From NCBI GenBank assembly GCA_029553475.1, contig JAKPKV010000137.1, positions 69,976 to 133,975 of the forward strand: DNA of 64,000 bases. Reading direction: 5' to 3'. Under the pieces are notes generated by a model. It was not told the DNA's origin and did not search any database. It was given only the letters and a program-made list of their open reading frames with translations. Origin of the DNA: Armatimonadota bacterium. GTDB taxonomy: Bacteria > Armatimonadota > Hebobacteria > CAIYQO01. Shown here in pieces: positions 14,285-63,892 of the stretch. Both the position numbers and the translations under genes were made by a program. Position 1 is the stretch's first letter, and each line of letters opens with the position of its first letter.

Positions 14285-14374
14285 CGCGGATCACGGTTTC
14301 CGCGCCCCCTGCCGGCGGGACGCAACGGATGAGTATACCAGCGCGGTCCGCGCGATGTCAAAGAAAAACCCGAC

Positions 14375-14476: not shown

Positions 14477-14483
14477 AAGCGGC

Positions 14484-14873
14484 TTACTTCACCTCGACGG
14501 TGGCGCCACCCTCTTCGAGGGCTTTCTTCGCGGCGTCGGCGTCGTCCTTCGTCACGCCTTCCTTCACCGCCTTCGGCGCGCCTTCCACCAGGTCTTTCGC
14601 TTCCTTCAGCCCGAGGCCGGTCAGCTCGCGGACGACCTTGATGACGTTGATCTTCTTCGCGGCGTCGAAGCCGGTGAGGATCACGTCGAAGGTGGTCTTC
14701 TCTTCTTCTTTTTCCGCTTCGGGAGCGGGACCGGCGGCGGCGGCCGGGGCGGCCACGGCGGCGGCCATCGGGGTCACGCCCCACTTGTCCTGCATCGTCT
14801 TGTAGAGGTCCACGATGTCCAGCAGGGACATCTGCTCGATGGCCTCGATGATCTGGTCTTTGGTCAATGCCAT
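14484..14873 (-). CDS. rplL: 50S ribosomal protein L7/L12
   Basis: 129 aa. [23 protein letters not shown].., Ala-rich hinge, ..[23 protein letters not shown].. Confidence 0.93.
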
Positions 14874-14937: not shown

Positions 14938-15471
14938 TTACGCGGCGGCCCCGTCGCGGGATGCATAGTAGGCCTCGAGGGTGCCCACCAGGTTCTGCAG
15001 CACCGCGCCCAGCGTAGATACCACGTTGGCCGCCGGCGACTGCACCGTGCCGACCAGGTTGCCGAGGATCTGCTCGCGCGGCGGCAGGGTGGTCAGCGCC
15101 TCGACGTCGGCCGCGCTCATCACGCGGGCGCCGAGCAGGCCGCCCTTCACCAGCGGCAGGTTCTTGCGCTCGGCGCGGATATATTCGGCAAGCGCTTTGG
15201 CGGCTTCCACCGGATCCCCGTCAATGAAGAGCACGGCGTTCGGCCCTTCCAGCAGGTCATCCACCGCCGGCATGTCCTGCGCGCGCAGGGCGATCTTCAG
15301 CAGGGTGTTTTTCACCACCATGAAGCGCGCGCCCAGCGGCCGCAGTTTGTTGCGCAGCTTGTACAGTTGTTCCACCGTCAGGCCGCGATACTCGGCCACG
15401 ATGGCCGCCTGGCTGTTTCCCAGCGCCTCGGCCAGGCCCTGCACCGTCATCTCTTTCTGTGGCGTTGGCAA
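14938..15471 (-). CDS. rplJ: 50S ribosomal protein L10
   Basis: TTG at 15471 (LPTPQKEMTVQGL..) lies 8 nt after AGGAGG. ..AIVAEYRGLTVEQLYKLRNKLR.. is typical L10. Confidence 0.88.
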   Translation of the reverse strand: MPTPQKEMTVQGLAEALGNSQAAIVAEYRGLTVEQLYKLRNKLRPLGARFMVVKNTLLKIALRAQDMPAVDDLLEGPNAVLFIDGDPVEAAKALAEYIRAERKNLPLVKGGLLGARVMSAADVEALTTLPPREQILGNLVGTVQSPAANVVSTLGAVLQNLVGTLEAYYASRDGAAA

Positions 15472-15676
15472 CGTTGTCACCTCCTTTGGTTCGCAAGATC
15501 GGTCCCCCGTCGGCACGCACAAAAAAACGCCGTGTCCTCACGGGACAGCGGCGCGATGTCGTCACGAACGGATCAGCGCGCGAACGCGCGGCGGATCGCG
15601 GTCGTCCACAACCTCGGCAGGCGGCCCGGTGGGCCTTACGCGCGCGGCACCTGCTGTCTCCGGCGGGTCTCACCAG
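15472..15676 (-). ncRNA. rplJ 5' leader, candidate L10-leader autoregulatory element
   Basis: About 205-nt untranslated leader between the consensus promoter and the rplJ RBS. It contains a terminator-like hairpin plus a U-run. The family assignment was not verified by a covariance model. Confidence 0.4.
15521..15553 (-). terminator. intrinsic attenuator inside the rplJ leader
   Basis: Minus strand CGCCGCTGTCC-CGTGA-GGACACGGCG followed by TTTTTTT, about 50 nt upstream of the rplJ start. Confidence 0.55.
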
Positions 15677-15682
15677 CGAGGA

Positions 15683-15711
15683 AGTATACCCGCGCGCGCC
15701 GGCGCTGTCAA
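15683..15711 (-). promoter_or_regulatory. sigma-70 promoter of rplJL
   Basis: Minus strand TTGACA-17 nt-TATACT (TTGACAgcgccggcgcgcgcgggTATACT). Confidence 0.7.
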
Positions 15712-15746
15712 GTGACGAGTACCGAGGCATGCCGGACGATTGGGTA

Positions 15747-15888
15747 CCTTGGGCGGGCGCGCGTCCCCGCGAGCCGACGCCGGGGGGAAGTCTAATCCGT
15801 CGTGCGCGCCAGATAGCCTATCTCGCGCACACGACATACGATCACTTCCTCCCGGCGTCGGCTCGCGGGGACGCGCGCCCGCCCAAGG
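15747..15888. repeat. perfect 38-bp inverted repeat with 66-bp loop
   Basis: CCTTGGGCGGGCGCGCGTCCCCGCGAGCCGACGCCGGG (15747-15784) and its exact reverse complement (15851-15888). The loop holds a second hairpin GTGCGCG..CGCGCAC. Confidence 0.9.
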
Positions 15889-15955
15889 CGCGGAAATCAC
15901 CCCACCCCGCGCGCAGGAAAGACGCGCCGCGGCGGCGAATCCCCCTATAAAGCGC

Positions 15956-19975: not shown

Positions 19976-20056
19976 GGCGTGTCCCCGCGCGCCCCGCTGT
20001 CCCGCCCAGGCCCTCGGCATCCGGTATACCGCACCGCCCGCGCACAGGCCCGTACC

Positions 20057-20357
20057 GGGGCCGCGGCGTTGTACTCCGCACGAGTGACCTCACCCTTTCG
20101 TTTACCTGTAGTGGTCGTTCACGCTGTCCCGTGCTCTGTAGTCCGCGCCCTCCGCGGCGCGTGTTGGCGCATTTTTACCCCGTGCCCGATGATGGTGGTG
20201 TCGGACACGGGGGCGCATGTTGGTCACACGCGCCGCGGAGGGCGCGGACTACCCCGGACTGGTTTGCTACACAGAGTACATCGTGACGACCCGCTACACG
20301 TGCGGAGTACAACGCCGCGGCCCCAGTGTGTGCGGAGCATCAACTCCGCGACCCCAG
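20057..20357. repeat. nested palindromic repeat: R3 element (GTAGYGGNCGTYACG ends) inside GCGGAGTACAACNCCGC hairpin repeats
   Basis: Outer arms 20057-20082 / 20299-20324 (GGGGCCGCGGCGTTGTACTCCGCAC and its complement). Inner element 20108-20297 has arms GTAGTGGTCGTTCACG..CGTGCTCTGTAGTCCGCGCCCTCCGCGGCGCGTGT mirrored on the right. An extra half-copy lies at 20330-20357. Confidence 0.85.
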
Positions 20358-21380: not shown

Positions 21381-21526
21381 GTTTCGTACTCGTACTCGTA
21401 CTCGTACTCGAATACGGCTTCGCTTCTTCACCGCGCGTCTGATCTCCAGGCACCGGACTGACTGAGGCGCGGTAACAACGCGCTCGGCTGCAGCACAACC
21501 GTTTCGAGTACGAGCACGAGTACGAG
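21381..21526. repeat. R2 palindromic repeat
   Basis: GTTTCGTACTCGTACTCGTACTCGTACTCGAATACGGCTTCGCTTCTTCACC..GTCTGATCTCCAGGCACCGGACTG..CGTTTCGAGTACGAGCACGAGTACGAG. Confidence 0.85.
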
Positions 21527-27108: not shown

Positions 27109-28851
27109 ATGCTCGCTCGCCTCGGTGTCCTTGCCACGCTGGCCGCGCTCTATATCGTGGGGCAGTCCCTTGCCGCCGCGCACGCCGCCGACCCCGACGC
27201 CGCCGCCGTCACCTGGACGATGGCCGGCCTGATGGTGGTCACTTTCCTGGCGCTGGTGGCGCTGATGTATACGAAGGTGCTGCCCGCGCTGCTGGCGCTG
27301 CCCATCCTCGCGGTGGCGCTGGCGAGCATCGCCGGGATGAAGTGGGACGTGCTCTTCACGAAAGTGATCGCGGACGGCACCACCCGCCTCTCCGGCGCCA
27401 TCATCGCCGCCATCCTCGGCGCGGTACTCGCCCAAGTGGTGGAGAAGACGGGCATCGCGCAGACGGCCATCAAGAAGACCGCGGAGCTGGGCGGCGACAA
27501 GCCGATGGTGCTCGCCGTGCTGCTCACCCTGGTCATCGCGCTGCTCTTCACCACCCTGGGCGGACTGGGCGCGGTGATCATGGTCGCCACCATCGCCATC
27601 CCCATCCTGCTGTCGCTGGGCCTGCGCCCGGTGTATGTGGGGTGTCTCTTCCTGCTCGCCCTCAGCCTGGGCGGCGTCTTCAACCTGGCGAACTGGCAGC
27701 TCTACAAGGACGTGCTCGGCCTCGACAACGCCGCCATCGGCCGCTTCGCCTATCCCTTCGCCGGCGCGATGCTGCTGGCCACCGCCGCCTTCATGGTCAT
27801 CGAGGGCACGCGCCTGGGCAAAAACCGCTTCAAAGCCACTGTCACCGAAACCGAAGACGCCCCGCGGCACACCTTCGTCCCCTGGTACGCCCTGCTCACC
27901 CCGGTGATCCCGCTGCTGCCGGTGCTGTTCTTCACGCTGTTGCCGAAATTCACCGCCAGGCCGGCGGAGATCGTCTACAAACCGATGCCGGGCGTCACGG
28001 TGAGTTCGGTGACCCAACGCGCATATGATCATGTCCGGCGGGAAAAGGAGCGCGCGCTGGCGCTGCCGATTTCGCCATTGACGCCGGATGTCCCGAGACC
28101 GCTCGCGGTCGGCGAAACCTACGTCCTCATGGCGATGCCTGATTCCTTCGAAGGTATTGAAAAGGCGGAAGGCATGACCATCACCCCCAAGCCATGGACG
28201 CGATACGAGATTTCTTCTACCTATGACTTGGCGACGAAGACCATCAAACTCCAATCGAAGGAGAGTTCGACAGCGTATGACTTCCCGATTGCGCTGGCCC
28301 TCCTCCTCGGCATCCTCTACGGCGCCATCACCACCTGGCGGCGCGGGCAGAGCACGGTGCAGTTGCTCACCAAAGCGTCCTTCGATGGCGTGGCGGCGGT
28401 GGGGCCGGCGGTGGTGCTGATGATCGGCATCGGCATGGTCTTTATGGCAACCAAGGAATCTCCCGAAGTCAATGGCATTATCGGGCCGGCCATCGCGAAA
28501 ATCGTGCCATTGGGCCAGACACCTGCCGCGTTCCTCCACTACGTGCTGCTTTTCGGCGTGCTCACCCCGCTGGCGCTGTATCGCGGCCCGCTGAATACCT
28601 GGGGCATGGGCGCAGGCTTGCTCGGTTTAATGCTGAAAGCCGGGATGCCCGCCGGCGCGGTGATGAGCGCCTTCATGTCCGTCGGCATGGTGCAGGGCGT
28701 CTGCGACCCGACGAATACGCACAACGTGTGGATCGCCAACTACACCAACACCGACGTGCAGGAGATCCTCAAGCGCACGCTGCCGTACATGTGGGCGCTG
28801 GCGTTCGTCGGCCTGCTCATCGCCGGGGCGATGTTTTACCTTGTCAAATAA
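27109..28851 (+). CDS. ion-transporter-superfamily permease (GntP/CitMHS-like) with a large central hydrophilic insertion
   Basis: ATG at 27109 preceded by AGGAGG. More than 10 hydrophobic helices. About 150 aa of soluble segment (TARPAEIVYKPMPG..QSKESSTAYD) in the middle. The substrate cannot be assigned. Confidence 0.65.
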   Translation: MLARLGVLATLAALYIVGQSLAAAHAADPDAAAVTWTMAGLMVVTFLALVALMYTKVLPALLALPILAVALASIAGMKWDVLFTKVIADGTTRLSGAIIAAILGAVLAQVVEKTGIAQTAIKKTAELGGDKPMVLAVLLTLVIALLFTTLGGLGAVIMVATIAIPILLSLGLRPVYVGCLFLLALSLGGVFNLANWQLYKDVLGLDNAAIGRFAYPFAGAMLLATAAFMVIEGTRLGKNRFKATVTETEDAPRHTFVPWYALLTPVIPLLPVLFFTLLPKFTARPAEIVYKPMPGVTVSSVTQRAYDHVRREKERALALPISPLTPDVPRPLAVGETYVLMAMPDSFEGIEKAEGMTITPKPWTRYEISSTYDLATKTIKLQSKESSTAYDFPIALALLLGILYGAITTWRRGQSTVQLLTKASFDGVAAVGPAVVLMIGIGMVFMATKESPEVNGIIGPAIAKIVPLGQTPAAFLHYVLLFGVLTPLALYRGPLNTWGMGAGLLGLMLKAGMPAGAVMSAFMSVGMVQGVCDPTNTHNVWIANYTNTDVQEILKRTLPYMWALAFVGLLIAGAMFYLVK

Positions 28852-28852
28852 C

Positions 28853-29059
28853 GTCCCGAAGGGACGGTCAGCCGTTAGCCACGGGTGGAGCGACAGCGGA
28901 ACCCGTGGAACACATTCGGCAAGACAAATCGAGCCCCGACGGGGCGACAGCAACGATGCTCTGCCGCCCCGTTGGGGCTTTTCCCATTTTCGGACACGGT
29001 TCCCACGGGTTGCGCTGTCGCTCCACCCGTGGCTAACGGCTCCTGCCCCGTTGGGGCAG
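28853..29059. repeat. composite palindrome made of two inverted R1 modules
   Basis: Reverse R1 copy at 28853-28909 (GTCCCGAAGGGAC..GTTAGCCACGGGTGGAGCGACAGCGGAACCCGTGG) and forward copy at 29002-29059, with GAGCCCCGACGGGGC / GCCCCGTTGGGGC hairpins between them. Confidence 0.85.
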
Positions 29060-29161
29060 TTTTTTCCCGACACAACCTCCCCTCCCGGCAGGGAATTCGC
29101 CCCGCCATCCCGAACCTCCCCTTTCGGCGCCGCATTTCGCAGACTCTGGCGCCGGGAGTAG

Positions 29162-33408: not shown

Positions 33409-33806
33409 TAGGGTTCGCGTATCCGTCGTACTCGTGCTCGTACTCGAAACGACTATGTGTAGTGGGCCGTTACGATATACCGTGCTCTGTAGTCCGCGCC
33501 CTCCGCGGCGCGTGTGACCAACATGCGACACCGTGTCCGACAACACCGGCATCGGGCACCAGCCTTCGCTAAAGCTTCGGCTGACAAGCGGTGGAAAACT
33601 GCGTCACCACGCGCCGCGGAGGGCGCTCCACTACCAGTCGCGTGTTTGAAGGCACACGGTACAGCGTGACGACCCGCTACAACTATGCTGTAGCCGAGCA
33701 CGATGATACCGCGCGTCGGTCAATCCGGTGCCTGGCGATCAGACGCGAGGTGAAGAAGCGAAGCCCGTATTCGAGTACGAGTACGATGACGATGACGAGT
33801 ACGACG
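33409..33806. repeat. composite repeat: R2 element split by a nested R3 element (33459-33680)
   Basis: Outer AGGGTTCGCGTATCC-GTCGTACTCGTGCTCGTACTCGAA .. TTCGAGTACGAGTACGATGACGATGACGAGTACGAC. Inner GTAGTGGGCCGTTACG..CGTGCTCTGTAGTCCGCGCCCTCCGCGGCGCGTGT..CGTGACGACCCGCTAC. Confidence 0.85.
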
Positions 33807-33826
33807 GGTTGGGGTGACCCCGGGCC

Positions 33827-34386: not shown

Positions 34387-35613
<1,227 letters not shown>

Positions 35614-35668
35614 CGTGACGATCTCCTTTCTCAACACATCATGAAGTGATGATGCTTCGGTCCGGGCA

Positions 35669-36952
35669 TCAGTTGTCGAACAGCACCATGCTCAACGCGC
35701 CCGCGCCGCAATACACCCCGGTTCCGGCCGTGGCGCGGATGCGGACGGTGCCCGGGCCCCGCACGCAGAATCCCGCATAGTACGCATTGAACGTTGATCG
35801 CACGCCGTCAGTCCCGCCGGGCAAGGTGATGGCCGGGGTCACTTTTTTGACGACCCCGCCCGTGTCCGCGACGTCGAAGACCAGCGGGGAGCCGCCGCAC
35901 ACCGGCAGCGCATACAGCGTCACCACGTGCAGCGCGCTGTCGGCGAGGGCGACGTTCACGCTGACGGCACGGCACATATTGCGCGGGTGAGGGCCGCTCG
36001 CGGGATTGTCAGCGGTGAAATAGAGGCCGGCTTTGGAGGACAGACCGTTCGGCCCCTGCGCGACCTGCGTGCGCTGATCAGCAACCGCCATGTTTTCCGG
36101 CATGGCGGTGAAGGGGGCGGTAAACTCCCGCACCGCGGACGAAAAATGGCCTTGATCCAGGGTAAACCGGAACGAGAGGCCGCTGGCCCAGGCGGGGAGC
36201 TGCGTTTTGATGTCCGCCGTGACCGGCGTGCGCCCGGCGGTCTCCCCGGTGTAAATCCAGTAGCCTTGCTCGCCGTAGTTGGAGAGGTCAACGGTGCCCG
36301 CCGCGGTGGTCGGGAACGCGAGTTGGGGACCCACCACCACGTCCCACAGGCGGAGCGGCGCGCGCTTGCCCAGCTCGGGCGGATTGAGATACAGGTCATG
36401 ACGCTTGAGCGCCGCCGTCACATCGTCCTTTTGCAGCGAGATATAGACGGCATGTCCGTCCACGGCGGATACCAGAAATCCCTCGTTATGCCGGGCGTCA
36501 ATGTCTTCATTGCCCCGCACCAGCGTGTAACTGGCGAGTGAATCCTTGTGCCGTTTCAGATCCGCGGTGAGCACGGTCTGCTCCGGATACGTGATGTCGC
36601 CCAACGCCGTGTCGAACAGGAACCAGTTGAATCCGTATTCCGGACGACCGCTGTTGCCCATGCCTTTCGTGCCTGACAACGACGGACAGTCATAGATGTT
36701 CGACTCGTTATAGGCGCCGAGCACCGTCGGCCAGGGTATGTCGCCGGTGTTGACGGGAAAGATCTCGCTGTGATCCTGCACGAACATGCTGACGGCAATG
36801 GCCTGCTGCCGAACGTTGTTCAGGCATTGGGACTGTTGGGCCTTCTCGCGGGCTTTCGCGAAGACCGGGAAGAGGATGGCGGCCAGAATCGCGATGATCG
36901 CGATGACCACCAGGAGTTCAATGAGGGTGAACCCTCGTCTCGCGGAGACCAT
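35669..36952 (-). CDS. prepilin-type H-X9-DG family protein (operon 1, promoter-proximal gene)
   Basis: ATG at 36952 after [55 protein letters not shown]. Confidence 0.88.
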
Positions 36953-37093: not shown

Positions 37094-37118
37094 TTCCGAG
37101 AAGCGCGCATTTTCGGAA
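37094..37118. repeat. recombination-site-like inverted repeat A (9-7-9)
   Basis: TTCCGAGAA-GCGCGCA-TTTTCGGAA. The extended match to site B covers 37093-37124 (29 of 32 positions). Confidence 0.85.
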
Positions 37119-37224
37119 GTTAGTAGGCGTAAATAATCATGATGTATGGCGCTCCGTCACGCGCGGGAGCGCCTCCGCGGGGCGTGGCGGCGCGGCAATA
37201 GTCGCGAAAGTAGAGGGGAACGGG

Positions 37225-37398
37225 CAACAGTTCAGTCCTGTCAGCATGTCGCCGATTGATGGCAAACCTAACCCCCCGCCCCCCTTCCCTGAGAGGGAAG
37301 GGGGAGTGATGGGTGTGCAGCTCCGGTGCTCCCCTCCCCGCTTAGGGGAGAGGTGGGCGGGCAGACGCCACATCACGCTGACAAGACGGAACGGTTAC
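37225..37398. mobile_element. MITE-like 174-bp insertion inside cassette 1
   Basis: Absent from the homologous position of cassette 3. Flanked by a 9-bp direct repeat GGGAACGGG (37216-37224 and 37399-37407). Imperfect terminal inverted repeats CAGTTCAGTCCTGTCAGCATG / CACGCTGACAAGACGGAACGG. Contains an R4-type twin hairpin. Confidence 0.65.
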
Positions 37399-37413
37399 GG
37401 GAACGGGGTGCGC

Positions 37414-37443
37414 TTGACAAAACAGACCCATGATGGGTAGACT
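37414..37443 (+). promoter_or_regulatory. promoter P1 inside cassette 1 (reads rightwards, away from operon 1)
   Basis: TTGACA-18 nt-TAGACT, ending 3 nt before site B. Homologous to P3 on the opposite strand. Confidence 0.6.
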
Positions 37444-37446
37444 AAC

Positions 37447-37471
37447 TTCCGAAAATGCGCGCTTTCCGGAA
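37447..37471. repeat. recombination-site-like inverted repeat B
   Basis: TTCCGAAAA-TGCGCGC-TTTCCGGAA. The spacer is the exact reverse complement of the site A spacer. Confidence 0.85.
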
Positions 37472-37491
37472 CCTTCCCCCGCACCCACTCC

Positions 37492-37563
37492 CGCCGGCGC
37501 GGCGATGACCCCGACAACAACGAAGGCGCGCTGGTGATGCGCCTCGCGTTGCGCCACGCGTGA
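37492..37563 (+). pseudogene. relic of the rimI 3' end
   Basis: Reads RRRGDDPDNNEGALVMRLALRHA*, versus genuine rimI RRRGYYPDNNEDALVMRLDLRRA* (34211-34282), followed by the same type of hairpin. Confidence 0.75.
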
Positions 37564-37564
37564 C

Positions 37565-37592
37565 GACGCCCGAGGCACGTGCCTCGGGCGTC
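37565..37592. terminator. hairpin terminator (paralog of 34288)
   Basis: GACGCCCGAGGCACGTGCCTCGGGCGTC. Confidence 0.6.
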
Positions 37593-37619
37593 GCTGTCTC
37601 GGCAGGCAAACGAGGGGGG

Positions 37620-38717
37620 CTATTCCACCCAGAAGGCCATCATCTCCGTACAGCCGTTGCCCTGGGCGCCGGTGTCGAACGGTTTGACGGGATCCACTTC
37701 GAATTTGACGCCTTTCACATCGTAGAACTCGGTCTCCGCGGCGCGAATGTCCCAGACGATCTTCGCGCCGCTCTCAACCGGCGCGGTGTCGCGCAGATTG
37801 CGCGGGCCGGATTTCGTGCCGAATTCCACCCAGGTGCTCGTGCGGGCGTCCAGCACGTAGACCTGGCAGGGGCCCACGCTGACGGTATCTTTTTCGCCGC
37901 CGCGGATTTTTATATAGTTGACGCGCGCCAGCGTCGGCAGAGAGAATTCGCACCAGAACGAAGAATTTCCGTCCCAGCGGCAGCGCGGGGTGGTGTAGCT
38001 CACGTATTCGATGCCATCCGAGATGTGCTGGATCGGGTTCCACGAGGTCAGCGGCTGGCTGCTCACCTTCGGCACGATCCCTTTCAGCAGGCTGGAGGCC
38101 GCGCTGGTATTGGAGGTGGCGGTCGCCTCGGTCACCGGCGAGTTCGCCGCGCCGCTGGAGGCCAGGGATACTCCCTTCAGCGTCATGCCGTCGGCGACGG
38201 TCTGCGGGCTTTTCACCACGATGTTGTCGGCGTGGCCATCCACCGCCACGAAGTTGAAGCTGTTGTTGTGACGGGGGTCAATATCCGTCGTCTGGCTGAT
38301 GGCGCAGGCGCCGGTGAAGGCGCTTTTCTTCAGGTCGGCGCACAGCACCGCGGAGGTGGGGGACAGCACCTCGCCCATGACTATGGGCGCGTACAGGTTC
38401 TTGTTGAAGCCGTATTCCGGCGCGGTGTTGGTGCCGGTGCCGGTGAACGATGGGCAGTCGTAGATGGTCGGCCCGTTGTACGGCGTCAGGTAGGCGCCCC
38501 AGGCGCTGCCGCCCGGATCGGGGAAGAAGGTCTGGTTGTTGTCCTGCACGTACATCTGCACGGCGACGGCGATTTGCCGCAGGTTGTTCAGGCAGGAGTT
38601 CTGCCGGGCTTTCTCCCGCGCGCGGGCGAACACCGGGAAGAGGATCGCCGCCAGGATGGCAATGATCGCGATCACCACCAGCAGCTCGATTAACGTAAAA
38701 CCGCGTTTCCGCATCAT
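37620..38717 (-). CDS. prepilin-type H-X9-DG family protein with discoidin/galactose-binding-like C-terminal domain (operon 2, distal gene)
   Basis: ATG at 38717 after [57 protein letters not shown]-terminus [32 protein letters not shown].. is paralogous to the next gene. Confidence 0.88.
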
Positions 38718-38753
38718 GAGTTCTCTCCTTTTCTCCACTGTCACGCGCATGGC

Positions 38754-39860
38754 TTACAGGACGAAGAAGGCCATCATCTCCGTGCCGCCGTTCCCCTGCA
38801 CATTCGTGTCGTAACCCGCCACCGGGTCCACGACGATCTTGACGCCGGACACGTCATAGTAGTTGGGCGTCATCGCGCGGATGTCCCAGAGCAGCGTGGA
38901 GCCGCTGGTGCCGCTGGGGTTCAGGTTGGTGGCGGCCGTCTTCGCGCCGATGTTCACCCATTCCCCGGTCTCTTTGACCTGCAAGGAGAGCTGGCACGGG
39001 CCGATGGAGATGGTGTCTTTCTCGCCGCCGCGGAATTTCAGATAGTTCACGCGCAGGCCGTACGGCAGCTCCCAGACCACGGTGAAGCTGCTGTCGCGGG
39101 ACCAGCGGCAGCGCGGGGTGGTGTAATTGATATAGTCCACGCCATCCGAGAGGTATTGAATCGGATTCCACGACGCCAGCGGCGCGGGGGTCGGTGTGCC
39201 GACCAGCCCTTTCAGCAGGTTGTTGATGGCCATGGCCTGGCCTATCGCGATGGGCTCCTCCGTGTTAATGATGGCATCCGGGCCGTAGAGCAGGTATTTG
39301 CGCGCGGGGAGCGCCTGCTTGATCGTCTGCCCGGCCAGGTTCTCGGTGGCGACGTGGCCGTCCAGGCAAGCCAGCAGCGCGTTGCCGCCGTGGCGGGGGT
39401 CCATGTGCTCGTATTTGGTGAAGGCGTAGTTGTCTTTGAACTGCGTCTTGGCGAGGTCCGTCGCCACGATGTACGTTTCCGGGGGCGTCAGGTCGCCGAG
39501 GGCGTAGCCGAAGAGCCAGCCATTAAAACCATACTCCGGGGCGGTGTTGGTGCCTTTGCCCTGCAGCGAGGGACAGTCATAAATGCTCGGCTCGTTGTAG
39601 GGGGCGAGATAGGCGGACCAGGGCGACGTCTTCGAATCCGGGAAGAGCATTTCGCCGTGATCCTGGAGATACATGCTGACCGCGATGCCGATCTGCCGCA
39701 GGTTGTTCAGGCACGACGTCTGGTTGGCTTTTTCGCGCGCCTTCGCGAAGACGGGGAAGAGGATGGCGGCTAAAATCGCGATGATCGCGATCACCACCAG
39801 GAGTTCGATGAGGGTGAAGCCCGCGCGGCGGCGGGTCCCTCTGCTCGGCAGCTGAGACAT
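38754..39860 (-). CDS. prepilin-type H-X9-DG family protein with discoidin-like C-terminal domain (operon 2, proximal gene)
   Basis: ATG at 39860 after [77 protein letters not shown].. Confidence 0.88.
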
Positions 39861-39907
39861 ACCCTACACTCCTTTCAAAAAGAACGTAGTATGGCCAACG
39901 CGATAGG

Positions 39908-39932
39908 TTCCGAAAATCGTATGTTTTCGGAA
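39908..39932. repeat. recombination-site-like inverted repeat C
   Basis: TTCCGAAAA-TCGTATG-TTTTCGGAA. Confidence 0.85.
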
Positions 39933-40053
39933 ACCAGCGGGCGAAAATGTTGCTGCCGGGCGCTCTGTGACGCCTGAATGGGGGGTATTTTGCCTCCGAG
40001 GGCTGCTGTCCGGGGCGCTACCGGGGGCATTGGCGGGCAAAGGCTCCCGATAC

Positions 40054-40083
40054 TTGACAAGAAAGGTCCTTGTCGCATATATT
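40054..40083 (+). promoter_or_regulatory. promoter P2 inside cassette 2
   Basis: TTGACA-18 nt-TATATT, ending 4 nt before site D. Confidence 0.6.
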
Positions 40084-40087
40084 TAAG

Positions 40088-40112
40088 TTCCGAAAACATA
40101 CGATTCCCGGAA
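40088..40112. repeat. recombination-site-like inverted repeat D
   Basis: TTCCGAAAA-CATACGA-TTCCCGGAA. The spacer is the exact reverse complement of the site C spacer. Confidence 0.85.
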
Positions 40113-40370
40113 TTGCCCGTGCAGGCGCGACAGCGGCACGACGCCGACATAGCATACCGGTGTATCACACCACGACCGCTGCCGTACTCGGACCTAGACA
40201 CCGTTGATGTCCGCGCGCGGCCTCCCGCCGCCCCCAAAGCCCTGCGCCCCCGCCCCGTGCCGGGCAGCCCGCCCGCATCCGGCAGGGGCATCCCATCGCG
40301 TGTCCCGCGCTGTTGACGTTGCCCTGCTTCCCGTGGACGCGTGCAGCGGTGAACCGGGGGCGACGTACGC

Positions 40371-40402
40371 GACGCGCCCGGTGCCAGGGCACCGGGCGCG
40401 TC
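40371..40402. terminator. hairpin terminator (paralog of 34288 and 37565)
   Basis: GACGCGCCCGGTGCCAGGGCACCGGGCGCGTC, 25 nt beyond the stop of the 40427 gene. Confidence 0.6.
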
Positions 40403-40426
40403 TGTCCAGGGGGCCAGCGGCCCAAT

Positions 40427-41584
40427 CTAGGGTTCGAAGACCAGGTAGGCGGCGCCCCTGTTGCAGCCGGTCGGGCCACTGAGCTGGATGCTCGTGGCTT
40501 TCCCCGCCTCGCAGGGTACCAGGAGGAAGCCGACGGAGGCTTTATCCGTGGAATTGGCCGAGGCTTTGATGACCTGGTTCAGGGTGACGGTGTTGGTCCC
40601 GGTGGTCACGCTCTGGATGGTGAAGGACGCGTTCGCATTGGTGTCAGCGGAGGTGAAGACCACGCCGACCTTGCGGATGCCGCTGGCATTCGGCACGAAG
40701 GTCACTTTCGCGGTGGTGACCCGGCCATCGTAGTCGCCGAATGGCGGCTGGATGTTCGCGCCGTTCCAGTTGAGCCAGGAGTTGCCGTTCCAACTGGACA
40801 GGGAGCCGCTCACCAGCGTCCAGGTGCCGTTGTCGCTCCACCAGCCCGGGTTGCCGGTGGGCATGAGCAGCATGCTGCTGGCGCCCCCGGTGCCGGCGGC
40901 GACCAGGGAGGCGATCTTCGAGATGCCGACGCCGCCCAGGAGGCCCTGCACGCTGCCGTCCGAGCGCTTCAGGTTCTCCGCCAGCAGCACGAACGGCACG
41001 CCGGCCACTTTCGAGCCTTTCGCCAGCGAGTAGGCGAAGGTGGCGGCGGTGATGTTGTCCTTGGTGAGGTAGCCGACGTGGCCGTCCACGTAGCCGAAGA
41101 CGGCGCCGTTGTTGTGGCGGCCCGTATCGCACTGCGCGAGCGCTTTCGCCAGGTCGCCGGTGTCGCCGTCATCCACGTAGGGCTTGCCGGTGGCCGGGCT
41201 CTTCAGCTCGGCGAGCATCACCGCCTCCACCGCGGAGCCGACGTCGTTGAGCGCCGCGCCCGAGAGGAAGGAGCCGGCGACGAAGAAGTAGTCCGGCTGC
41301 ACTGACTTGCCCATGAAGCTGGTGGTGGGACAGTCGAAGATCTTGTTCTCCGCGCCGTAGTTGGCGGCAAGCTGGCTGTTCCAGCCGGTGGCCGACGGCA
41401 GCTTGGAGTCGTGGTCCTGCGCGTACATGGTCATGCCGATGCAGAGCTGCCGGACGTTGTTCATGCAGGTATTCTGCCGGGCCTTCTCACGGGCTTTGGC
41501 GAATACCGGGAAGAGGATCGCCGCCAGGATCGCGATGATCGCGATGACGACCAGGAGCTCGATCAATGTAAAGCCTTTTCGCAT
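40427..41584 (-). CDS. prepilin-type H-X9-DG family protein (operon 3, distal gene)
   Basis: ATG at 41584 after [55 protein letters not shown]. Confidence 0.88.
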
Positions 41585-41613
41585 GGGATGATACCTCCTC
41601 TAGGTAATCGGCC

Positions 41614-42765
41614 TTATTCCTCGAAGGCCAGGCTCATGCCGCTCCAGCCGGGGATGGCGCTGTAATCGAGAGTGATCTCGATGGTCTTGCCGGCTTCGAC
41701 GGGGATGGCCAGGAATCCGGCCGCCACCTTGCCGCCGCTGGACTGGAGGGATTTGTTGAGCGTATACGTGTCGGCGCCGATCTTGATGGTCGAAAGCCGC
41801 GTGATGCCCACGCCCAGGCTGTCCCAGCAGCTATACATCACCACCAGCTTCTTCGTGACGGGCGTGGTCAGGCTGGCGTGCGGGACGATCGTCACCGTCG
41901 CGATGCCTGTGCGGCCGTCGCCGTCGCCGCAGATCGGCACGCGGTTCGCCCCGTTCCAGCGCACGCCGTTCCAGTCGTACACGGTATTCGTGCCGACGAC
42001 CTGGGTGAACGTCGGCATCGCCGACCACCAGGTGGGCGTGCCGGTCGGCTCCACGGCGGTCGCTTTGTTGTACAGCAGTTTCGTCACGCCCAGCGCCTTG
42101 CAGGTGGTGTAGAAGGTCTGCGCGGTGTCGCGGGCGGGCGTCATGCCGTCGGCGATCTGCCCCATCCACGTCGGCTCGGTGACGACGACGTTGGGATTCA
42201 TGCTGGGGGCGAAGAAGCCGGCGTTGATCTCCTCGCGCTTCACCCAGGCCACGTGGCCGTCCAGGAAGGCGAAGACCGCGCCGCCGTTATGGCGGGCGTC
42301 CGCGGTGGCGACGGCGGTCAGCGGATTCTGCGTGCCGTTGTCGTTGATGTACGGCGGGTTTTCCCCGGGCCCGGACTGGTCGCCGACGATGGGCGCGAGC
42401 TCCGGATACTTCACGTCGCCCAGCGCCATGCTGTCCAGGAAGGAGCCGGCCACGTAGAAGTAGTCCGGCTGGGTGTCGGTGCCCACGTGGGTGATGGAGG
42501 GGCAATCCCAGACTTTGCCGGTCATTCCGTAGTGCTGCGCCAGCACGCCGTACCAGGTTTTCGCCGGCGGCAGCCTCTCCTCGTTGTCCTGCACGTACAT
42601 GCTCACGGCAATGGCAATCTGCCGCTGGTTGTTCATGCAGGTGTTCTGGTTGGCCTTCTCGCGGGCTTTCGCGAAGACGGGGAACAAGATGGAGGCCAGG
42701 ATGGCGATAATCGCGATCACCACCAGGAGTTCGATGAGGGTGAACCCTCGTTTCGGGGAGACCAT
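41614..42765 (-). CDS. prepilin-type H-X9-DG family protein (operon 3, proximal gene)
   Basis: ATG at 42765 after [55 protein letters not shown]. Confidence 0.88.
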   Translation of the reverse strand: MVSPKRGFTLIELLVVIAIIAILASILFPVFAKAREKANQNTCMNNQRQIAIAVSMYVQDNEERLPPAKTWYGVLAQHYGMTGKVWDCPSITHVGTDTQPDYFYVAGSFLDSMALGDVKYPELAPIVGDQSGPGENPPYINDNGTQNPLTAVATADARHNGGAVFAFLDGHVAWVKREEINAGFFAPSMNPNVVVTEPTWMGQIADGMTPARDTAQTFYTTCKALGVTKLLYNKATAVEPTGTPTWWSAMPTFTQVVGTNTVYDWNGVRWNGANRVPICGDGDGRTGIATVTIVPHASLTTPVTKKLVVMYSCWDSLGVGITRLSTIKIGADTYTLNKSLQSSGGKVAAGFLAIPVEAGKTIEITLDYSAIPGWSGMSLAFEE

Positions 42766-42892
42766 GTTCGTAACCTCCTTTACGGATTGATTATGATGCA
42801 CGGAAATGTGCACGGCAGGGTTCTCGCGCTCATCACGCTGGAGAACGCCTCGTTGCCGCCTGTGCCGACCATACGCTCAAGGGTCTTGGCCC

Positions 42893-42917
42893 TTCCGAGA
42901 ATCCCGTATTTCCGGAA
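42893..42917. repeat. recombination-site-like inverted repeat E
   Basis: TTCCGAGAA-TCCCGTA-TTTCCGGAA. Confidence 0.85.
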
Positions 42918-42920
42918 ATT

Positions 42921-42949
42921 AATCTACGCATCACGGCCTATTTTGTCAA
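42921..42949 (-). promoter_or_regulatory. promoter P3 inside cassette 3 (drives operon 3)
   Basis: Minus strand TTGACA-17 nt-TAGATT, ending 3 nt before site E. Confidence 0.65.
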
Positions 42950-43063
42950 GTAATCCCACGCGTTCCCCCGCCACTTCCGCGACTATTTCAGCGTCTCCAC
43001 TCCCACGGGGGCGCTCCCGCGCGCGTGACGGAGCGCCACGCCTCACGATGTACGCCCGCTGAC

Positions 43064-43088
43064 TTCCGGAAATACGGGATTTCCGGAA
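43064..43088. repeat. recombination-site-like inverted repeat F
   Basis: TTCCGGAAA-TACGGGA-TTTCCGGAA. The spacer is the exact reverse complement of the site E spacer. Confidence 0.85.
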
Positions 43089-43410: not shown

Positions 43411-43426
43411 TGCTAAAGCGCTTCAA
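43411..43426. promoter_or_regulatory. LacI-type operator candidate O1, overlapping a TTGCTA-18-TATACT promoter
   Basis: TGCTAAAGCGCTTCAA (AAAGCGCTT core palindrome). TATACT at 43434-43439. Confidence 0.45.
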
Positions 43427-43479
43427 ACTCGCGTATACTGAATGCTTGGAAGCATCCGTGCCGGCGGAGAATCGAGTGG

Positions 43480-43493
43480 TTAAAGCGCTTTAA
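43480..43493. promoter_or_regulatory. LacI-type operator candidate O2
   Basis: Perfect 14-bp palindrome TTAAAGCGCTTTAA, about 95 nt upstream of the LacI-family gene. Confidence 0.5.
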
Positions 43494-43587
43494 TCAGTAT
43501 TGATAAAATTATAACACGGACAGATAGCTCTGTCAATGCGACGGCGGCTCTATTACCGAAAAAAGCTGGCGGGGAAAGGAGGCGACG

Positions 43588-44751
43588 ATGACTGATCTGC
43601 CCATCGCGGGATTATCCGTCCGCGCCGTCACCCTCAAAGACATCGCCGCGCACTGCGGGGTGTCGCTGGGCACGGTGTCGCTGGCGCTGCGCGACGACCC
43701 GCGCATCAGCACGGATACCCGCGCGCGCGTGCTGGCGGCGGCAGCCGAGCTGGGATACGACCCCACGCTGCATCAGGCGGCGCGCCGGCTGGCGCTCAGC
43801 AAGCACGGCCGCGACGTGCTCAATCACGTCATCGCGCTGATCGCCCCGTCGGGCTTTCACCGGCCGGGCTATTTCGCCGAGCTGCTGCACGGCATCATGG
43901 ACGTGCTGGTGCCCGCCGGCTTTTGTGCGCTCATCACCTACATTTACTCGCACGAGGACGCCCAGGAGACGACCATCCCCAGCGCCCTGCGCGCGGGCAT
44001 TGTGGACGGCCTCATCAGCATGGTGCGCCCGGAGCCGGTCATCGCGCTGCTCGACACGCTGCGCCGGCAGCCGGGATTCGCCCGCCGCCCCACCGCCTCG
44101 CTCATCTGGGAGATGCCCGGCAGCTCCTGCGTGCGCGCCGATGACGAGGGCGCCGGATACGCCCTGACGCGGCGCCTGCTCGCGCTGGGGCACCGGCATT
44201 TCCTGCAGTTGACCTTCCTGCTGCCCTACAGCAAAACGATGGAACCCCAGAACTACCGCATCGCGGGCGCGCGGCGCGCGCTGGCGGAGGCCGGCCTCGA
44301 TCCGGACCGCCACCTGCTGCTCGCGGACATGTCGAACTTCAATTGGCTCAACCCGGCGCATATTGACTCGGACCAGCCCGAACTCGCGCAGGTGTGGGTG
44401 GGCGACCGGGTGTTGCCGCTGGTGGACGTGCTGCGCGCCCACCCGGCCATCACCGCCATCTTCGGCCTGAACGACGCCAGCGCGCTGCGCGCCTGGCGGC
44501 TGCTGGAAGGGGCGGGCTATCGCGTGCCGGCGGACTACAGCATCGTCGGCTTCGACGACACGACGCCCCGTCTCGACGCCGCGGGCGCCAACCAGCTCTC
44601 CTCGGCGCGCGTGCCGCTGCAGGAGATCGGCCGCGCCGCCGCAACGCTGATTATCGAACAGGCCACCGCGGCCGTGCCGCGCGCCCCCGCGGAGCTGGTG
44701 CTGCCGGTGGCGATGGCCTTCCGGGGATCGGTCGGCCCGGCGCGAGGGTGA
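43588..44751 (+). CDS. LacI-family transcriptional regulator
   Basis: 387 aa, ATG after AAGGAGG. N-terminal HTH VTLKDIAAHCGVSLGTVSLALRDDPRIS..TRARVLAAAAELGY, followed by a periplasmic-binding-protein-like fold. Confidence 0.88.
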   Translation: MTDLPIAGLSVRAVTLKDIAAHCGVSLGTVSLALRDDPRISTDTRARVLAAAAELGYDPTLHQAARRLALSKHGRDVLNHVIALIAPSGFHRPGYFAELLHGIMDVLVPAGFCALITYIYSHEDAQETTIPSALRAGIVDGLISMVRPEPVIALLDTLRRQPGFARRPTASLIWEMPGSSCVRADDEGAGYALTRRLLALGHRHFLQLTFLLPYSKTMEPQNYRIAGARRALAEAGLDPDRHLLLADMSNFNWLNPAHIDSDQPELAQVWVGDRVLPLVDVLRAHPAITAIFGLNDASALRAWRLLEGAGYRVPADYSIVGFDDTTPRLDAAGANQLSSARVPLQEIGRAAATLIIEQATAAVPRAPAELVLPVAMAFRGSVGPARG

Positions 44752-49529: not shown

Positions 49530-49558
49530 GGTCCCTCTCCTTTCATCGTAGTCATTTT

Positions 49559-49699
49559 GGAGGGCGAGACTCCGTCGAGCCGCGTGCGTAGGGACCGTGA
49601 TTGCATTCGCATATACCTTTGAGCGGGTACTACGCGCCTAGGTATGCAGAGAGTCGCTCCCGGTTCCTACGCACGCGGCTCGACGGAGTCTCGCCCTCC
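49559..49699. repeat. R5: perfect 34-bp inverted repeat with 73-bp loop
   Basis: GGAGGGCGAGACTCCGTCGAGCCGCGTGCGTAGG (49559-49592) and its exact reverse complement (49666-49699). Confidence 0.9.
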
Positions 49700-49704
49700 A
49701 AAAA

Positions 49705-51253: not shown

Positions 51254-52315
51254 TCACCTCAGCACGAGCACGATGAAGCGGATCTTCTGGATCTCGAAGT
51301 ACTGCTGGGTGTCATCGTAGCAGGTGAGGGGGGTGATCCGGACATATCGCGCCTGCGCCGGGCTGCCGAATTGGTAGTCCTCGCCTCGGTAGTTCGTCAC
51401 GAACGTCGCCGGAGCGGTGGGGAGGGGCACGGCCAGGACATTCGGCGTGATGGTCACCGGCGTGAAGCTGGTGCCGTTGAGCGACACCGCCACGTTCGCC
51501 GTGCGCACGGCGTATTTGGCCGAGTTGGCCGCGTTCGTGTTCCATAAATGGAACGCGGACACGTAATACGCCTGCCCCAGGTCGTAAATCAGATGGACGT
51601 CTGTTTTCGTGCTGCTGCACCAGGGATAATGGATTTGATCATAGCCATACGTGTGCCCCGGCCAGATGGCGGGCACCTCCGCGCCGGTCACGATATCGGC
51701 GGACAGGCCGGTGGCGTCAAGCGTGTGAGAGGCGGGATAGAGCGCGCTATAGGGCTTGGACGCCGCCTCATCCACCCCGACGGGCTTCACCACCATCCGC
51801 TGCGCCCCGGCGGGGACGTCGGGCCCTTTATACGTCCAGGAGGCGCTCTTGTCGGTGGTTTCCACATGCCCATCCACGAAGGCCGCGATGGTCTTTTTAC
51901 TGTGGCGGGTGGCCGCCGTGGCGAGGTGCTGGCCGTCGGCGGTGCAGAAGGTGGCGGTGGGATCGGACACATCGCCGAGCGCGGTGCCATCCAGCACATT
52001 GTTATACACGTAGTCGGGGTTGGTGGCGGCGCCTTTCTTCGAGGTGGTCGGGCAGTCCCACACCTTGCCCGGGGTCTCCGCCGCCTGCGTCCAGGTGGCC
52101 GACCGGGGCAGGGTTTCATCGTAGTCCTGCGCGTACAGGGTGATCGCGGTGACGAGCTGGCGCTGATTGTGCATGCAGGTGGTCTGCCGCGCCTTCTCAC
52201 GGGCGTTCGCAAACACCGGGAAGAGGATGGCCGCCAGGATGGCGATGATCGCGATGACGACGAGCAGCTCGATCAGGGTGAACCCGGAATGCGGCCGCTG
52301 ATGATGATGAGACAT
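51254..52315 (-). CDS. prepilin-type H-X9-DG family protein with F5/8-type-C (discoidin)-like C-terminal domain (solitary copy)
   Basis: ATG at 52315 after [55 protein letters not shown]-terminus ..[26 protein letters not shown]... No flanking inverted sites; a TATAAT lies at 52347-52352 (minus). Confidence 0.88.
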
Positions 52316-52425
52316 CAGACGCTCCTTTCGCAAACTGATGCATGAAATTATAAGCGGCAGGCACGGCAGCGTCGTTCTCTGATACGGACTTAGTATTTCG
52401 CGATCCGGTCACGGGGGAGAATTGG

Positions 52426-52473
52426 AAACGCTCTCCACGCGTCTCGCCGCCGCGAGATGCGTGGAGAGCGTTT
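52426..52473. terminator. long hairpin after the AraC-family gene
   Basis: AAACGCTCTCCACGCGTCTCG-CCGC-CGCGAGATGCGTGGAGAGCGTTT with a flanking T-run. It abuts the AraC stop codon (52474-52476). Confidence 0.55.
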
Positions 52474-53384
52474 TTAGGCGCCGACGTCAGTGCGGTACTG
52501 GCTGGGCGTCATGCCGAAACGGCGTTTGAAGAGCGCGCAGAAGTAGGCGACGTTGGCGATGCCCACCCGGGCACCGATGGCGGAGAGTTTCAGGTCTGTT
52601 TCGCGGAGCAGCAAGCAGACCTGGCGCATGCGCAACTGCAGCAGGTATGCCATCGGGCTCAAGCCCGTTTGCGCGCGGAAGAGGCGCGCGAGGTGGCGCG
52701 GGCAGTATCCGGCGTGCTGGGCGAGCGTGGCCATGGTGATCGGCTCCGCGAGATGCTGCAGCATGAACTGCTCGACCTGGGGCACCACCTGCGGCACGCG
52801 GGGATGGGCCGGCGGCGTCTCCGCAAACCAACCGGCCACGGCCAGCGCGTCGGCGGTCAGAGCACCGCGGCCATGGCGCGCATCGTCCAGCCGGGCCGCC
52901 CCTCCGCCGCCTCGGTAAAGATGTGCCGGCACATCGCGATCACCGCCGGGTCGGCAGGCCAGACCGACGGCACGGGGACGGCGACGGCGGGGTCCAGCGT
53001 CATCTGTACGGCACAATACACGCAGGTGTGCGCCGCGACAGCCCAGGAATGCTCGGTATACGGCGCATGCAGCATCATGCTGCCCGGCTGCAGCGCCTGC
53101 GGCGCGGCGCCCGGATACGCGGCCCCCCCCTGCACGATCACCAGCAACTCGTAATACGAGTGGGAATGGGGCGGAACCGTCGCGCCCGGGCGCATGGAGT
53201 GCAGGGCCACGTTCTCCAGCGTCATCGCGTAGTCGCCGACGGTGAACCGCGGCTGGTCGTGGAACAACCGCTCACACCGCTGGCGCAGCCACCACCAGCG
53301 CTCGGACGCCGTTTCCTGCACGCCACGCTGCATAAAAAAACACCCCCGGAACATCGGGACAGGCATCACCCCGCGCCAAGCCAT
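52474..53384 (-). pseudogene. AraC-family regulator split by a frameshift (cupin N-domain + HTH C-domain in different frames)
   Basis: ORF 52857..53384 encodes the cupin part (..PPHSHSYYELLVIVQG..) and stops at ..RAMAAVL*. ORF 52474..53016 carries the AraC HTH (..ITMATLAQHAGYCPRHLARLF..FKRRFGMTPSQYR). The frames join smoothly at about 52858-52866 if one base is added. Confidence 0.7.
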
Positions 53385-60620: not shown

Positions 60621-61142
60621 CAATCCCTACTCCCTGTTTTCCCCAATCCCTAATTGTAGTGGGCCGTCACGCTACAGATAGGAGATAGGAGTACGAGGTA
60701 GAGGATATGATGTCATCCCGAAGGGATCACCCCCGCCGGCCACGGGCGGCGCATCAGCGGACCCCGCGGGCAGCACCCGGTCGCTCCCCACCCCCATGTC
60801 CCGAAGCTGTCGCCCCTGCGGGGCTGTGGATGTTTTGCGGGGCCGGGGTCCACGGGTTCCGCTGACGCTCCACCCGTGGCTAACGGCTTCGGTCCCTTCG
60901 GGACATGGGGATGGGGGGCGACCGGGCGCTATCCGGGGGGGCCGCTGGCGCGCCGCCCGCGTCGGCGCCGGCCGATTCCCGTGGGACGCCCCCGGTCAAG
61001 ATGGCGAAGCGAGGCGCAACGTGACGAGCCGCTACAATTAGGGATTAGGGGTGAGGGATTGGGGCTTGGGGCGCGCGCTACGGTTTGCATGGCACGGCGC
61101 ATCGTGACGACCCGCTACACCTAATCCCCGACCCCTAACCCC
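60621..61142. repeat. large composite of nested repeats (TAGGGAT-type arms > R3 ends > R1 module) plus an R3 half-copy
   Basis: CCCCAATCCCTAATT|GTAGTGGGCCGTCACG (60641-60671) pairs with CGTGACGAGCCGCTAC|AATTAGGGATTAGGGG (61020-61051). Inside, CCCCACCCCCATGTCCCGAAG (60787-60807) pairs with CTTCGGGACATGGGGATGGGG (60897-60917) around an R1 module at 60849-60905. An extra CGTGACGACCCGCTAC sits at 61103-61118. Confidence 0.8.
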
Positions 61143-63651: not shown

Positions 63652-63726
63652 CGGTCGTTCCTGTGATGAAAGCGGCGTTCGCGACGGTATTGTACCACAA
63701 ACCCGCCCGCGTGGCACTAGCAGCCC

Positions 63727-63892
63727 GCGGATACAGTCGTTATTCGGATTGCGCCGAGATTTTGGCGCCAGGCAAGGCGCAGATATAGTGTGTTACATAG
63801 AATGTAAACGCTATATCTGCAACGCGGCATGGCGGCAAAAGATTAAACAAGGCGAGTAACGACTGTATCCGCGGGCTGCTAGCGCGTCAGCA
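63727..63892. repeat. perfect 26-bp inverted repeat flanking a 114-bp AT-richer segment
   Basis: CTAGCAGCCCGCGGATACAGTCGTTA (63727-63752) and its exact reverse complement (63867-63892). The interior holds a second palindrome GCAGATATAG..CTATATCTGC and a minus-strand TTGCAG-17-TATGTA. Confidence 0.9.

Follow-up and report, generated by a model that had tools for sequence, protein, structure and literature searches.

Candidate invertible promoter cassettes with private spacers upstream of prepilin-type/DUF1559 operons in an Armatimonadota bacterium

The locus and its paired sites

The stretch of DNA analysed here, referred to in the following as the window, comprises 64,000 nt of an Armatimonadota bacterium (assembly GCA_029553475.1, contig JAKPKV010000137.1, forward strand 69,976–133,975). 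It is chromosomal, with a G+C content of 67% and with rpoD, dnaG, ffh, ftsZ and ribosomal protein genes present, and the exact and near-exact copies of its proteins carry the NCBI label Armatimonadota. The subject of this work is a set of three two-gene operons in the window, each of which has a pair of inverted 25-bp sites directly upstream (three of three). In all six operon products the N-terminus is a prepilin-type methylation motif, after which a DUF1559 domain begins, and the H-X9-DG motif was present in the one product checked. The same locus was found on a 133.6-kb JGI digester contig (L001) and on several short contigs, at 99.7–99.9% identity. A pair of sites with the segment between them is called a cassette below; W1–W3 are window cassettes 1–3, J cassettes lie on the JGI contig, and L-numbers denote other metagenome contigs.

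Each site has a 9-7-9 layout, in which two inverted 9-bp arms surround an asymmetric 7-bp spacer (TTCCGRRAA-N7-TTYYCGGAA). This pattern matched exactly six times in the 64 kb (Table 1), compared with 0.00 matches in dinucleotide-preserving shuffles of the window, and a search allowing up to three mismatches revealed no seventh site. The 9-mer arms alone occurred once more, at position 19157. The six sites form three inverted pairs, which a repeat finder also reported, as three inverted repeats with arms of 25–31 nt around 316, 155 and 146 nt; for cassette 1, the 316 nt are measured between the 31-nt arms and the 328 nt of Table 1 between the 25-nt sites. In part of the cassettes the inverted repeat continues inward for another 4–6 nt (cassette 1: 6 nt), and the outer arms of one pair are usually unlike each other at the RR positions. 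The spacers are reverse-complementary within a pair and different between pairs (GCGCGCA, TCGTATG and TCCCGTA). Pattern search, shuffles and repeat finder thus confirm what a first-pass annotation of the window had described: six 9-7-9 sites with spacers that are paired within cassettes and distinct between them. Isolated sites upstream of unrelated genes, which that annotation had named as speaking against a role in recombination, were not seen in the window at up to three mismatches. A scan for Rfam families and tRNAs found none in the window, and an RNA-family reading was rejected. No similarity was found between the cassettes and phages or plasmids.

Table 1. Features of the cassette region and of other intergenic elements in the window. 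Switch states are predicted from promoter direction; all sites were identified by pattern and inverted-repeat match.
Feature	Coordinates	Strand	Sequence or content	Predicted direction, state or remark
Operon 1	34387..36952	-	prepilin-type N-terminal/DUF1559 (H-X9-DG) genes 35669-36952 and 34387-35637	
Cassette 1 gene-proximal site	37094..37118		TTCCGAGAA-GCGCGCA-TTTTCGGAA	
Cassette 1 interior	37119..37446	+	328 bp; promoter TTGACA-18-TAGACT at 37414-37443	away from operon; OFF
Cassette 1 distal site	37447..37471		TTCCGAAAA-TGCGCGC-TTTCCGGAA	
Operon 2	37620..39860	-	prepilin/DUF1559 genes 38754-39860 and 37620-38750	
Cassette 2 gene-proximal site	39908..39932		TTCCGAAAA-TCGTATG-TTTTCGGAA	
Cassette 2 interior	39933..40087	+	155 bp; promoter TTGACA-18-TATATT at 40054-40083	away from operon; OFF
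Cassette 2 distal site	40088..40112		TTCCGAAAA-CATACGA-TTCCCGGAA	
Operon 3	40427..42765	-	prepilin/DUF1559 (H-X9-DG) genes 41614-42765 and 40427-41584	
Cassette 3 gene-proximal site	42893..42917		TTCCGAGAA-TCCCGTA-TTTCCGGAA	
Cassette 3 interior	42918..43063	-	146 bp; promoter TTGACA-17-TAGATT at 42949->42921	into operon; ON
Cassette 3 distal site	43064..43088		TTCCGGAAA-TACGGGA-TTTCCGGAA	
Fixed upstream promoter of operon 3	43413..43536	-	perfect TTGACA-17-TATAAT at 43536->43508, upstream TG	toward cassette 3
LacI-type palindrome	43480-43493		TTAAAGCGCTTTAA	perfect, 14 bp
LacI-type palindrome, second copy	43413-43426		2-mismatch copy of TTAAAGCGCTTTAA	
Divergent LacI-family regulator gene	43588..44751	+		distal side of cassette 3
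Nested-hairpin intergenic elements	15747-15888, 20054-20327, 21389-21526, 28846-29065, 33423-33807, 49555-49703, 60641-61050, 63714-63885			

Co-variation of spacers across the cassette family

Metagenomes were scanned for two TTCCGNNAA-N7-TTNNCGGAA arm pairs 140–170 nt apart, with the spacers left unconstrained. It yielded 11 contigs, which all belong to a single series of anaerobic-digester samples, and the spacers were perfect reverse complements of each other in 10 of the 11 pairs. Further pairs of the kind that the first-pass annotation had proposed to look for are therefore present in the same digester population. One additional cassette, outside the scan result, was found on L152, a second JGI contig, and the first JGI contig (L001) carries four cassettes, the fourth with a new spacer, TCACACG. 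Nine further cassettes in all lie outside the window. A scan of GTDB genomes with the single-site pattern was uninformative: among the matches listed there were only singletons in unrelated taxa, and about 140 matches are expected by chance in 596 Gb.

The family contains at least 11 distinct spacers, which differ between cassettes at 2–7 positions (minimum pairwise Hamming distance 2). All 11 are non-palindromic, with 3–7 mismatches to their own reverse complement, and they share a polarity that reads N-C-G-N-R-Y-R from the outer to the inner arm. A stricter rule of alternating purines and pyrimidines fitted the four spacers found first but not the larger collection, and this weaker polarity bias took its place.

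When mismatches between partner sites were summed over 10 distinct cassettes, the outer arms differed at 16/90 positions and the inner arms at 8/90, giving 24/180 for the arms combined, while the spacers differed at 0/70. The probability of 0/70 spacer mismatches at the rate of the arms is 4.5e-5. Outside the sites the partners were less alike, with 20/60 mismatches in the 6 nt inside the inner arm and 40/60 in the 6 nt outside the outer arm. The interiors of all cassettes can be aligned and have diverged by roughly 10–30%. Since the spacers are matched although the interiors have diverged to this extent and the arms vary, the two spacers of a cassette must have changed in concert. Such concerted change is the signature that would be expected if the whole 7-bp region had to match for a reaction between the two sites.

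Cassette interiors, promoters and target genes

One end of every cassette carries a predicted promoter of the form cTTGACA-17-TAnACT, which lies 3–4 nt from the site and reads outward; the opposite end of the interiors carries a conserved RYYAGCGGGCGAAAA. In each window cassette the predicted promoter is sigma-70-like, matching the consensus at 10–11 of 12 positions, and is among the best matches in the region. Given their placement, the promoters inside the cassettes would read into the neighbouring gene in just one of the two orientations. By promoter direction, W3, J4, L126 and L130 would be ON, and W1, W2/J2, L120, L123, L124, L127 and L152b would be OFF.

Cassette 1 is a homologue of the 146–157-bp cassettes with a hairpin-rich insertion of about 170 bp. 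The insertion (37230–37400) consists of CCCCTTCCC/GGGAAGGGG-type hairpins, and a palindromic element resembling it is located downstream of ffh, at 14361–14489.

Ten of 11 cassettes adjoin N_methyl/DUF1559 genes. The remaining one (L124 3401–4931; spacer ACGAACA, OFF) precedes a gene for a secreted protein with NPCBM and FGE-sulfatase domains, not a pilin-like gene, and the switch family is therefore not limited to pseudopilins. Surface and secreted proteins are typical targets of phase variation.

Inversion and exchange between cassettes

Cassettes J2 and J4 of the JGI contig L001 share 92% identity, and the leaders downstream of them are identical; the two interiors are mutually inverted, so that one promoter is directed away from its operon and the other into its operon. 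Window cassettes 1 and 3 have the same relationship: their flanks and outer arms are direct paralogues, and their interiors are mutually inverted. In these paralogous cassettes the outer arms go with the flanks, and the change in orientation falls at the sites. Because duplication alone preserves orientation, and the paralogues are inverted between direct flanks, the alignments indicate that an inversion bounded by the 9-7-9 sites must have occurred in the past. One contig, L140 (ENA ERZ795049 NODE_13533), was rejected as evidence of inversion; it is palindromic, with a 427-aa pilin gene and cassette 1 duplicated head to head at 2.6x coverage, and is most likely an assembly artefact.

The window (39661–39932) lacks 3.2 kb of the JGI contig (L001 12834–16318), a segment in which the fourth cassette is accompanied by a pilin pair (411 and 403 aa) and a 150-aa fragment of a LacI-family gene. 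We considered a site-specific deletion and rejected it, since the two sites have different spacers and the junction lies inside about 270 bp of leader and N-terminal sequence that two cassettes have in identical form on their downstream side. The difference is likely to result from homologous recombination or assembly collapse. All four combinations of J2 or J4 with the two downstream genes (411 aa and 368 aa) occur in different contigs, reflecting either frequent homologous exchange across the ~270-bp leader or assembly chimeras. Two cassettes are themselves mosaic. W2 agrees with J2 in spacer and interior except for the 4 nt beside its distal inner arm, which read ctta as in J4 and not acca (40083–40087); in L129 the sites and ends are those of J4, around a J2-type centre in the opposite orientation. 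These mosaics suggest gene conversion between cassettes, and some of the cases of mosaicism or exchange could be assembly chimeras.

Related loci with LacI-type control

The syntenic locus, with a LacI gene, pilin pairs, GNAT, TsaB and TsaE, was found in three relatives (GCA_964590255.1, GCA_022708765.1 and ADurb.Bin429, GCA_002068615.1). No 9-7-9 sites were detected in the syntenic loci of these three, even at three mismatches. Their operons have fixed TTGACA/TATAAT promoters with LacI-type palindromes upstream. A region of this kind also precedes operon 3 in the window (Table 1), and it is conserved in a cassette-less relative directly before the orthologous pilin operon (L143 1660–1790). 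Since the relatives keep the operons and the LacI-type promoters without the sites, the cassettes are a lineage-specific addition over an older control, which was probably sugar-responsive. Operon 3 may thus have two promoters, one regulated and one invertible, and in the OFF state the cassette 3 promoter would read toward the LacI gene. LacI-family genes adjoin three cassettes.

Proposed mechanism

The reading that we favour, and consider probable, is that the cassettes are promoter invertons served in trans by one recombinase, with cassette-specific 7-bp overlaps that confine recombination to a cassette's own sites. The six sites in the window would then be the crossover sites of three invertible promoter cassettes, each switching a two-gene prepilin-type/DUF1559 operon on or off. 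The 9-bp arms (TTCCG-RR-AA) would bind the recombinase and are inverted around the 7-bp asymmetric overlap. The enzyme, whose gene would lie in another part of the genome and which most probably belongs to the tyrosine family, would bring together the two sites of one cassette, and strand exchange at the spacer edges would flip the 146–328-bp segment, which carries the predicted TTGACA-17/18-TAnAnT promoter 3–4 nt from one site. With a private spacer per cassette, one enzyme could flip each cassette independently, and the operons between cassettes would be protected from site-specific deletion or inversion.

Strand exchange by tyrosine recombinases turns the overlap into a heteroduplex, so that only sites with identical spacers recombine efficiently, and a matching overlap region is an established requirement of Cre, Flp, Xer and lambda Int. 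In core sites of this type the overlap is 6–8 bp long; the enzymes cleave at its two edges through a 3'-phosphotyrosine, and a Holliday junction is the intermediate. We infer ongoing inversion, a single enzyme for all cassettes and a block to cross-recombination by spacer mismatch. The first-pass annotation had proposed recombination sites with cassette-specific spacers, and this part is strengthened by the co-variation and the inverted paralogues. The assignment to the tyrosine class, drawn from site geometry and spacer behaviour only, is the least secure part of our reading.

Several observations weigh against this interpretation, the first of them concerning the enzyme. The window was surveyed for recombinases with Pfam on about 50 open reading frames (ORFs) covering it and with NCBIfam on the ORFs that Pfam left unassigned. 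No tyrosine or serine recombinase was found, in agreement with the first-pass annotation, which had seen no recombinase ORF in the 64 kb. Nor was there a tyrosine or small serine recombinase in the 10 kb beyond each window end on the JGI contig or beside the other cassettes (the flanks on L120–L130, and L152). PF00589 (Phage_integrase) had no match in the scanned ORFs or in the precomputed annotations of the loci, and no invertase was present in ~140 kb of this population. The search of the contig set for integrase or invertase genes that the annotation had recommended therefore produced no invertase in ~140 kb. The only recombinase seen near a cassette is a frameshifted large serine recombinase on L152 (3378–5091), 5 kb away. 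This enzyme reads as a Resolvase part, then a Recombinase and Zn ribbon part, and shares a prophage-like island with DUF2924; an enzyme of this type is more probably an integrase than an invertase.

The sites themselves raise further difficulties. Their 9-bp arms are short compared with those of loxP and FRT (13 bp) or dif (11 bp), and spacer positions 2, 3, 6 and 7 are biased (to C, G, Y and R), so that the enzyme may contact part of the "spacer". The L122 pair, the sole mismatched pair found, has two spacer mismatches (distal CCGCGCG vs partner CCGCATG), and in the L152b cassette (spacer TCGGGCA; L152 16085–16291) two of the four arms are mutated in the CGG core. These two may be locked or decaying copies; L122 may also be a hybrid cassette or an intermediate in spacer change. 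L122 (2326–2530) and L127 (2823–3027) have a common interior and downstream gene and differ in their distal flanks. An orphan degenerate site lies at L152 9601–9625, 77 bp outside the cassette that is 5 kb from the serine recombinase. With regard to orientation, the opposite orientation at the same locus was not found in any available assembly; because these are consensus contigs, several at ~3–4x coverage, that give the majority orientation only, the fixed orientation is weak negative evidence. Finally, private spacers are no protection from RecA-type homologous exchange, as the 3.2-kb difference and the mosaic cassettes illustrate.

A more speculative extension, which we regard as doubtful, is that a self-spreading "promoter-inverton module" colonised at least 11 pre-existing operons in one Armatimonadota lineage, with private spacers arising via the recombination mechanism itself. 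A spacer mutation would be carried to the partner site by heteroduplex segregation after a rare inversion, and L122 would be a possible intermediate. On this reading the enzyme of the cassettes could also be non-canonical, none having been found nearby.

Alternative explanations

The enzyme might instead be a serine invertase of the Hin/Gin/Mpi type with a central 2-bp stagger, in which case the identity of the spacers would come from descent and not from a homology requirement. We consider this unlikely, although Bacteroides Mpi, a serine recombinase, acts in trans on many promoter invertons, and the sole recombinase near any cassette is of the serine family. The arms (TTCCGAAAA) may also be loosely like the outer part of hix/gix half-sites. 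However, the 25-bp sites are of odd length and not 12-2-12, and all seven spacer positions match while the arms drift, which a 2-bp core would not enforce. The 2–7 differences between the spacers of different cassettes also make a conserved inner half-site improbable. The L152 enzyme, for its part, is of the large, integrase-like type with DUF2924 and not a ~190-aa invertase, and no small gene with Resolvase and helix-turn-helix domains was found near the sites among the window ORFs.

Slightly less probable still is that the cassettes are fossil switches, which inverted in the past and are now fixed, the recombinase having been lost or silenced. Every assembly that holds a given cassette has it in the same orientation, the ~140 kb contain no recombinase, and there are signs of decay in the L122 spacers, the L152b arms and the orphan site at L152 9601. 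Against this, ten cassettes keep matched spacers despite 10–30% divergence of their interiors, which argues for continuing selection or conversion, and switching remains compatible with 3–4x consensus assemblies that give the majority orientation only.

It is very improbable that a dimeric transcription factor, such as the neighbouring LacI-family regulator, uses the sites as paired operators and loops out a promoter. The sites are near-palindromic, two of them flank a promoter, and LacI-family genes stand beside three cassettes, but operators give no reason for reverse-complementary spacers or for inverted paralogous interiors, and there are no single sites upstream of other genes. Moreover, a separate motif, TTAAAGCGCTTTAA, has the form of a LacI-type operator, which is a 14–20-bp palindrome with a central CG near the regulated promoter; two copies of it stand beside the LacI gene, a relative without 9-7-9 sites conserves it, and the sites are absent from relatives that keep LacI. 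Because the sequence of this operator is not that of the sites, and because it is retained where they are missing, the operator hypothesis can be removed. We give as little credence to the cassettes being transposable elements of the miniature inverted-repeat type with the sites as terminal inverted repeats: they do form a family of homologous ~200-bp copies, scattered within one lineage and lacking in relatives, but termini copied by transposition would be uniform, whereas the 7-nt block is copy-specific yet complementary within each copy, and there are no target-site duplications in the 6-nt flanks (40/60 mismatches) and no similarity to plasmids or phages.

Comparison with known systems

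The closest likeness to the reading as promoter invertons with private spacers is found in Clostridioides difficile, where a "spacer code" was proposed in 2025 for the RecV switches (flgB, cwpV, cmrRST and others), in which one motif is common to the switches and each has a spacer of its own, an arrangement proposed to keep different switches from recombining with one another (PMC12282940). In both cases one trans-acting recombinase would serve several short invertible segments, with a spacer that is identical within and unique between switches. The sites differ, being AWAGTWNCCNTTW-N6 in C. difficile and TTCCGRRAA-N7 here, as do the hosts and the targets: six heterogeneous switches in Bacillota compared with at least 11 cassettes of one homologous family in Armatimonadota. 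RecV has been identified and tested as the enzyme, whereas the recombinase here is putative and its targets are prepilin/DUF1559 operons. The Armatimonadota cassettes would thus share the RecV principle with a distinct site family; the spacer-code concept is not new, RecV being its direct precedent, and the cassettes are not a new mechanism.

Cre/loxP with its heterospecific variants (lox511, lox2272, loxN) and FLP/FRT have the same layout of inverted arms around an asymmetric 7–8-bp spacer, and their orthogonal spacers allow independent events with one enzyme. Spacer identity between lox partners was reportedly addressed by Hoess in 1986, a work that the RecV paper cites. With 13 bp, the arms of these systems are longer than the 9 bp (and up to 6 bp more toward the inside) of the present sites, which are natural and not engineered like the lox variants. 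No Cre-like gene was found in the scanned loci.

The E. coli fimS switch resembles the cassettes in having a promoter on an invertible segment of ~300 bp that controls a pilus operon, with tyrosine recombinases (FimB/FimE) acting at short inverted repeats. It is a single switch, however, with adjacent recombinase genes and 9-bp inverted repeats with flanking half-sites, and has no spacer-coded family. Mpi of Bacteroides fragilis likewise acts away from most of its targets and flips many promoter cassettes of surface structures (capsular polysaccharide); it belongs to the serine recombinases, and the inverted repeats on which it acts have a core in common and no private spacers. Hin/hix and Gin/gix also use short near-palindromic inverted sites around a promoter or gene segment, but these are 26-bp 12-2-12 sites with a 2-bp core, a Fis enhancer and an adjacent invertase, none of which was seen here.

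Implications

Our literature searches turned up no connection of DUF1559 to phase variation or of Armatimonadota to invertons, and they met the term "spacer code" only in the RecV paper (PMC12282940). Within the searched literature, the cassettes are therefore the first indication that the very large and obscure DUF1559/H-X9-DG pseudopilin family is phase-variable, which would point to a cell-surface role under fluctuating selection, e.g. phage or substrate pressure. Co-variation in 11 homologous cassettes offers independent evolutionary support for the spacer code, which so far is an in-silico model for six RecV switches. If the recombinase were found, the 25-bp sites would form a natural orthogonal set for one enzyme, useful for multiplexed genetic switches, and if one compact recombinase serves all cassettes, this set would count at least 11 members that are mutually orthogonal under that enzyme. 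The comparison with the relatives shows how stochastic switching can be superimposed on sugar-responsive control of the LacI type or take its place.

Other features of the window

Another prepilin/DUF1559 protein in the window, encoded at 51254–53016, has a C-terminal F5/8 type C (discoidin) domain and no 9-7-9 sites. Its gene adjoins those for an AraC-family regulator and an alpha-L-fucosidase, which hints that the DUF1559 pilin-like family is tied to glycan use.

Long near-perfect inverted repeats with arms of 19–91 nt occur in many intergenic regions of the window, among them elements with nested hairpins (Table 1). These intergenic hairpin elements have the recurring motifs CGTACTCGTACTCG / CGAGTACGAGTACG and GTACTCCGCACGAG, and they are also found in L152, at 15400–15900.

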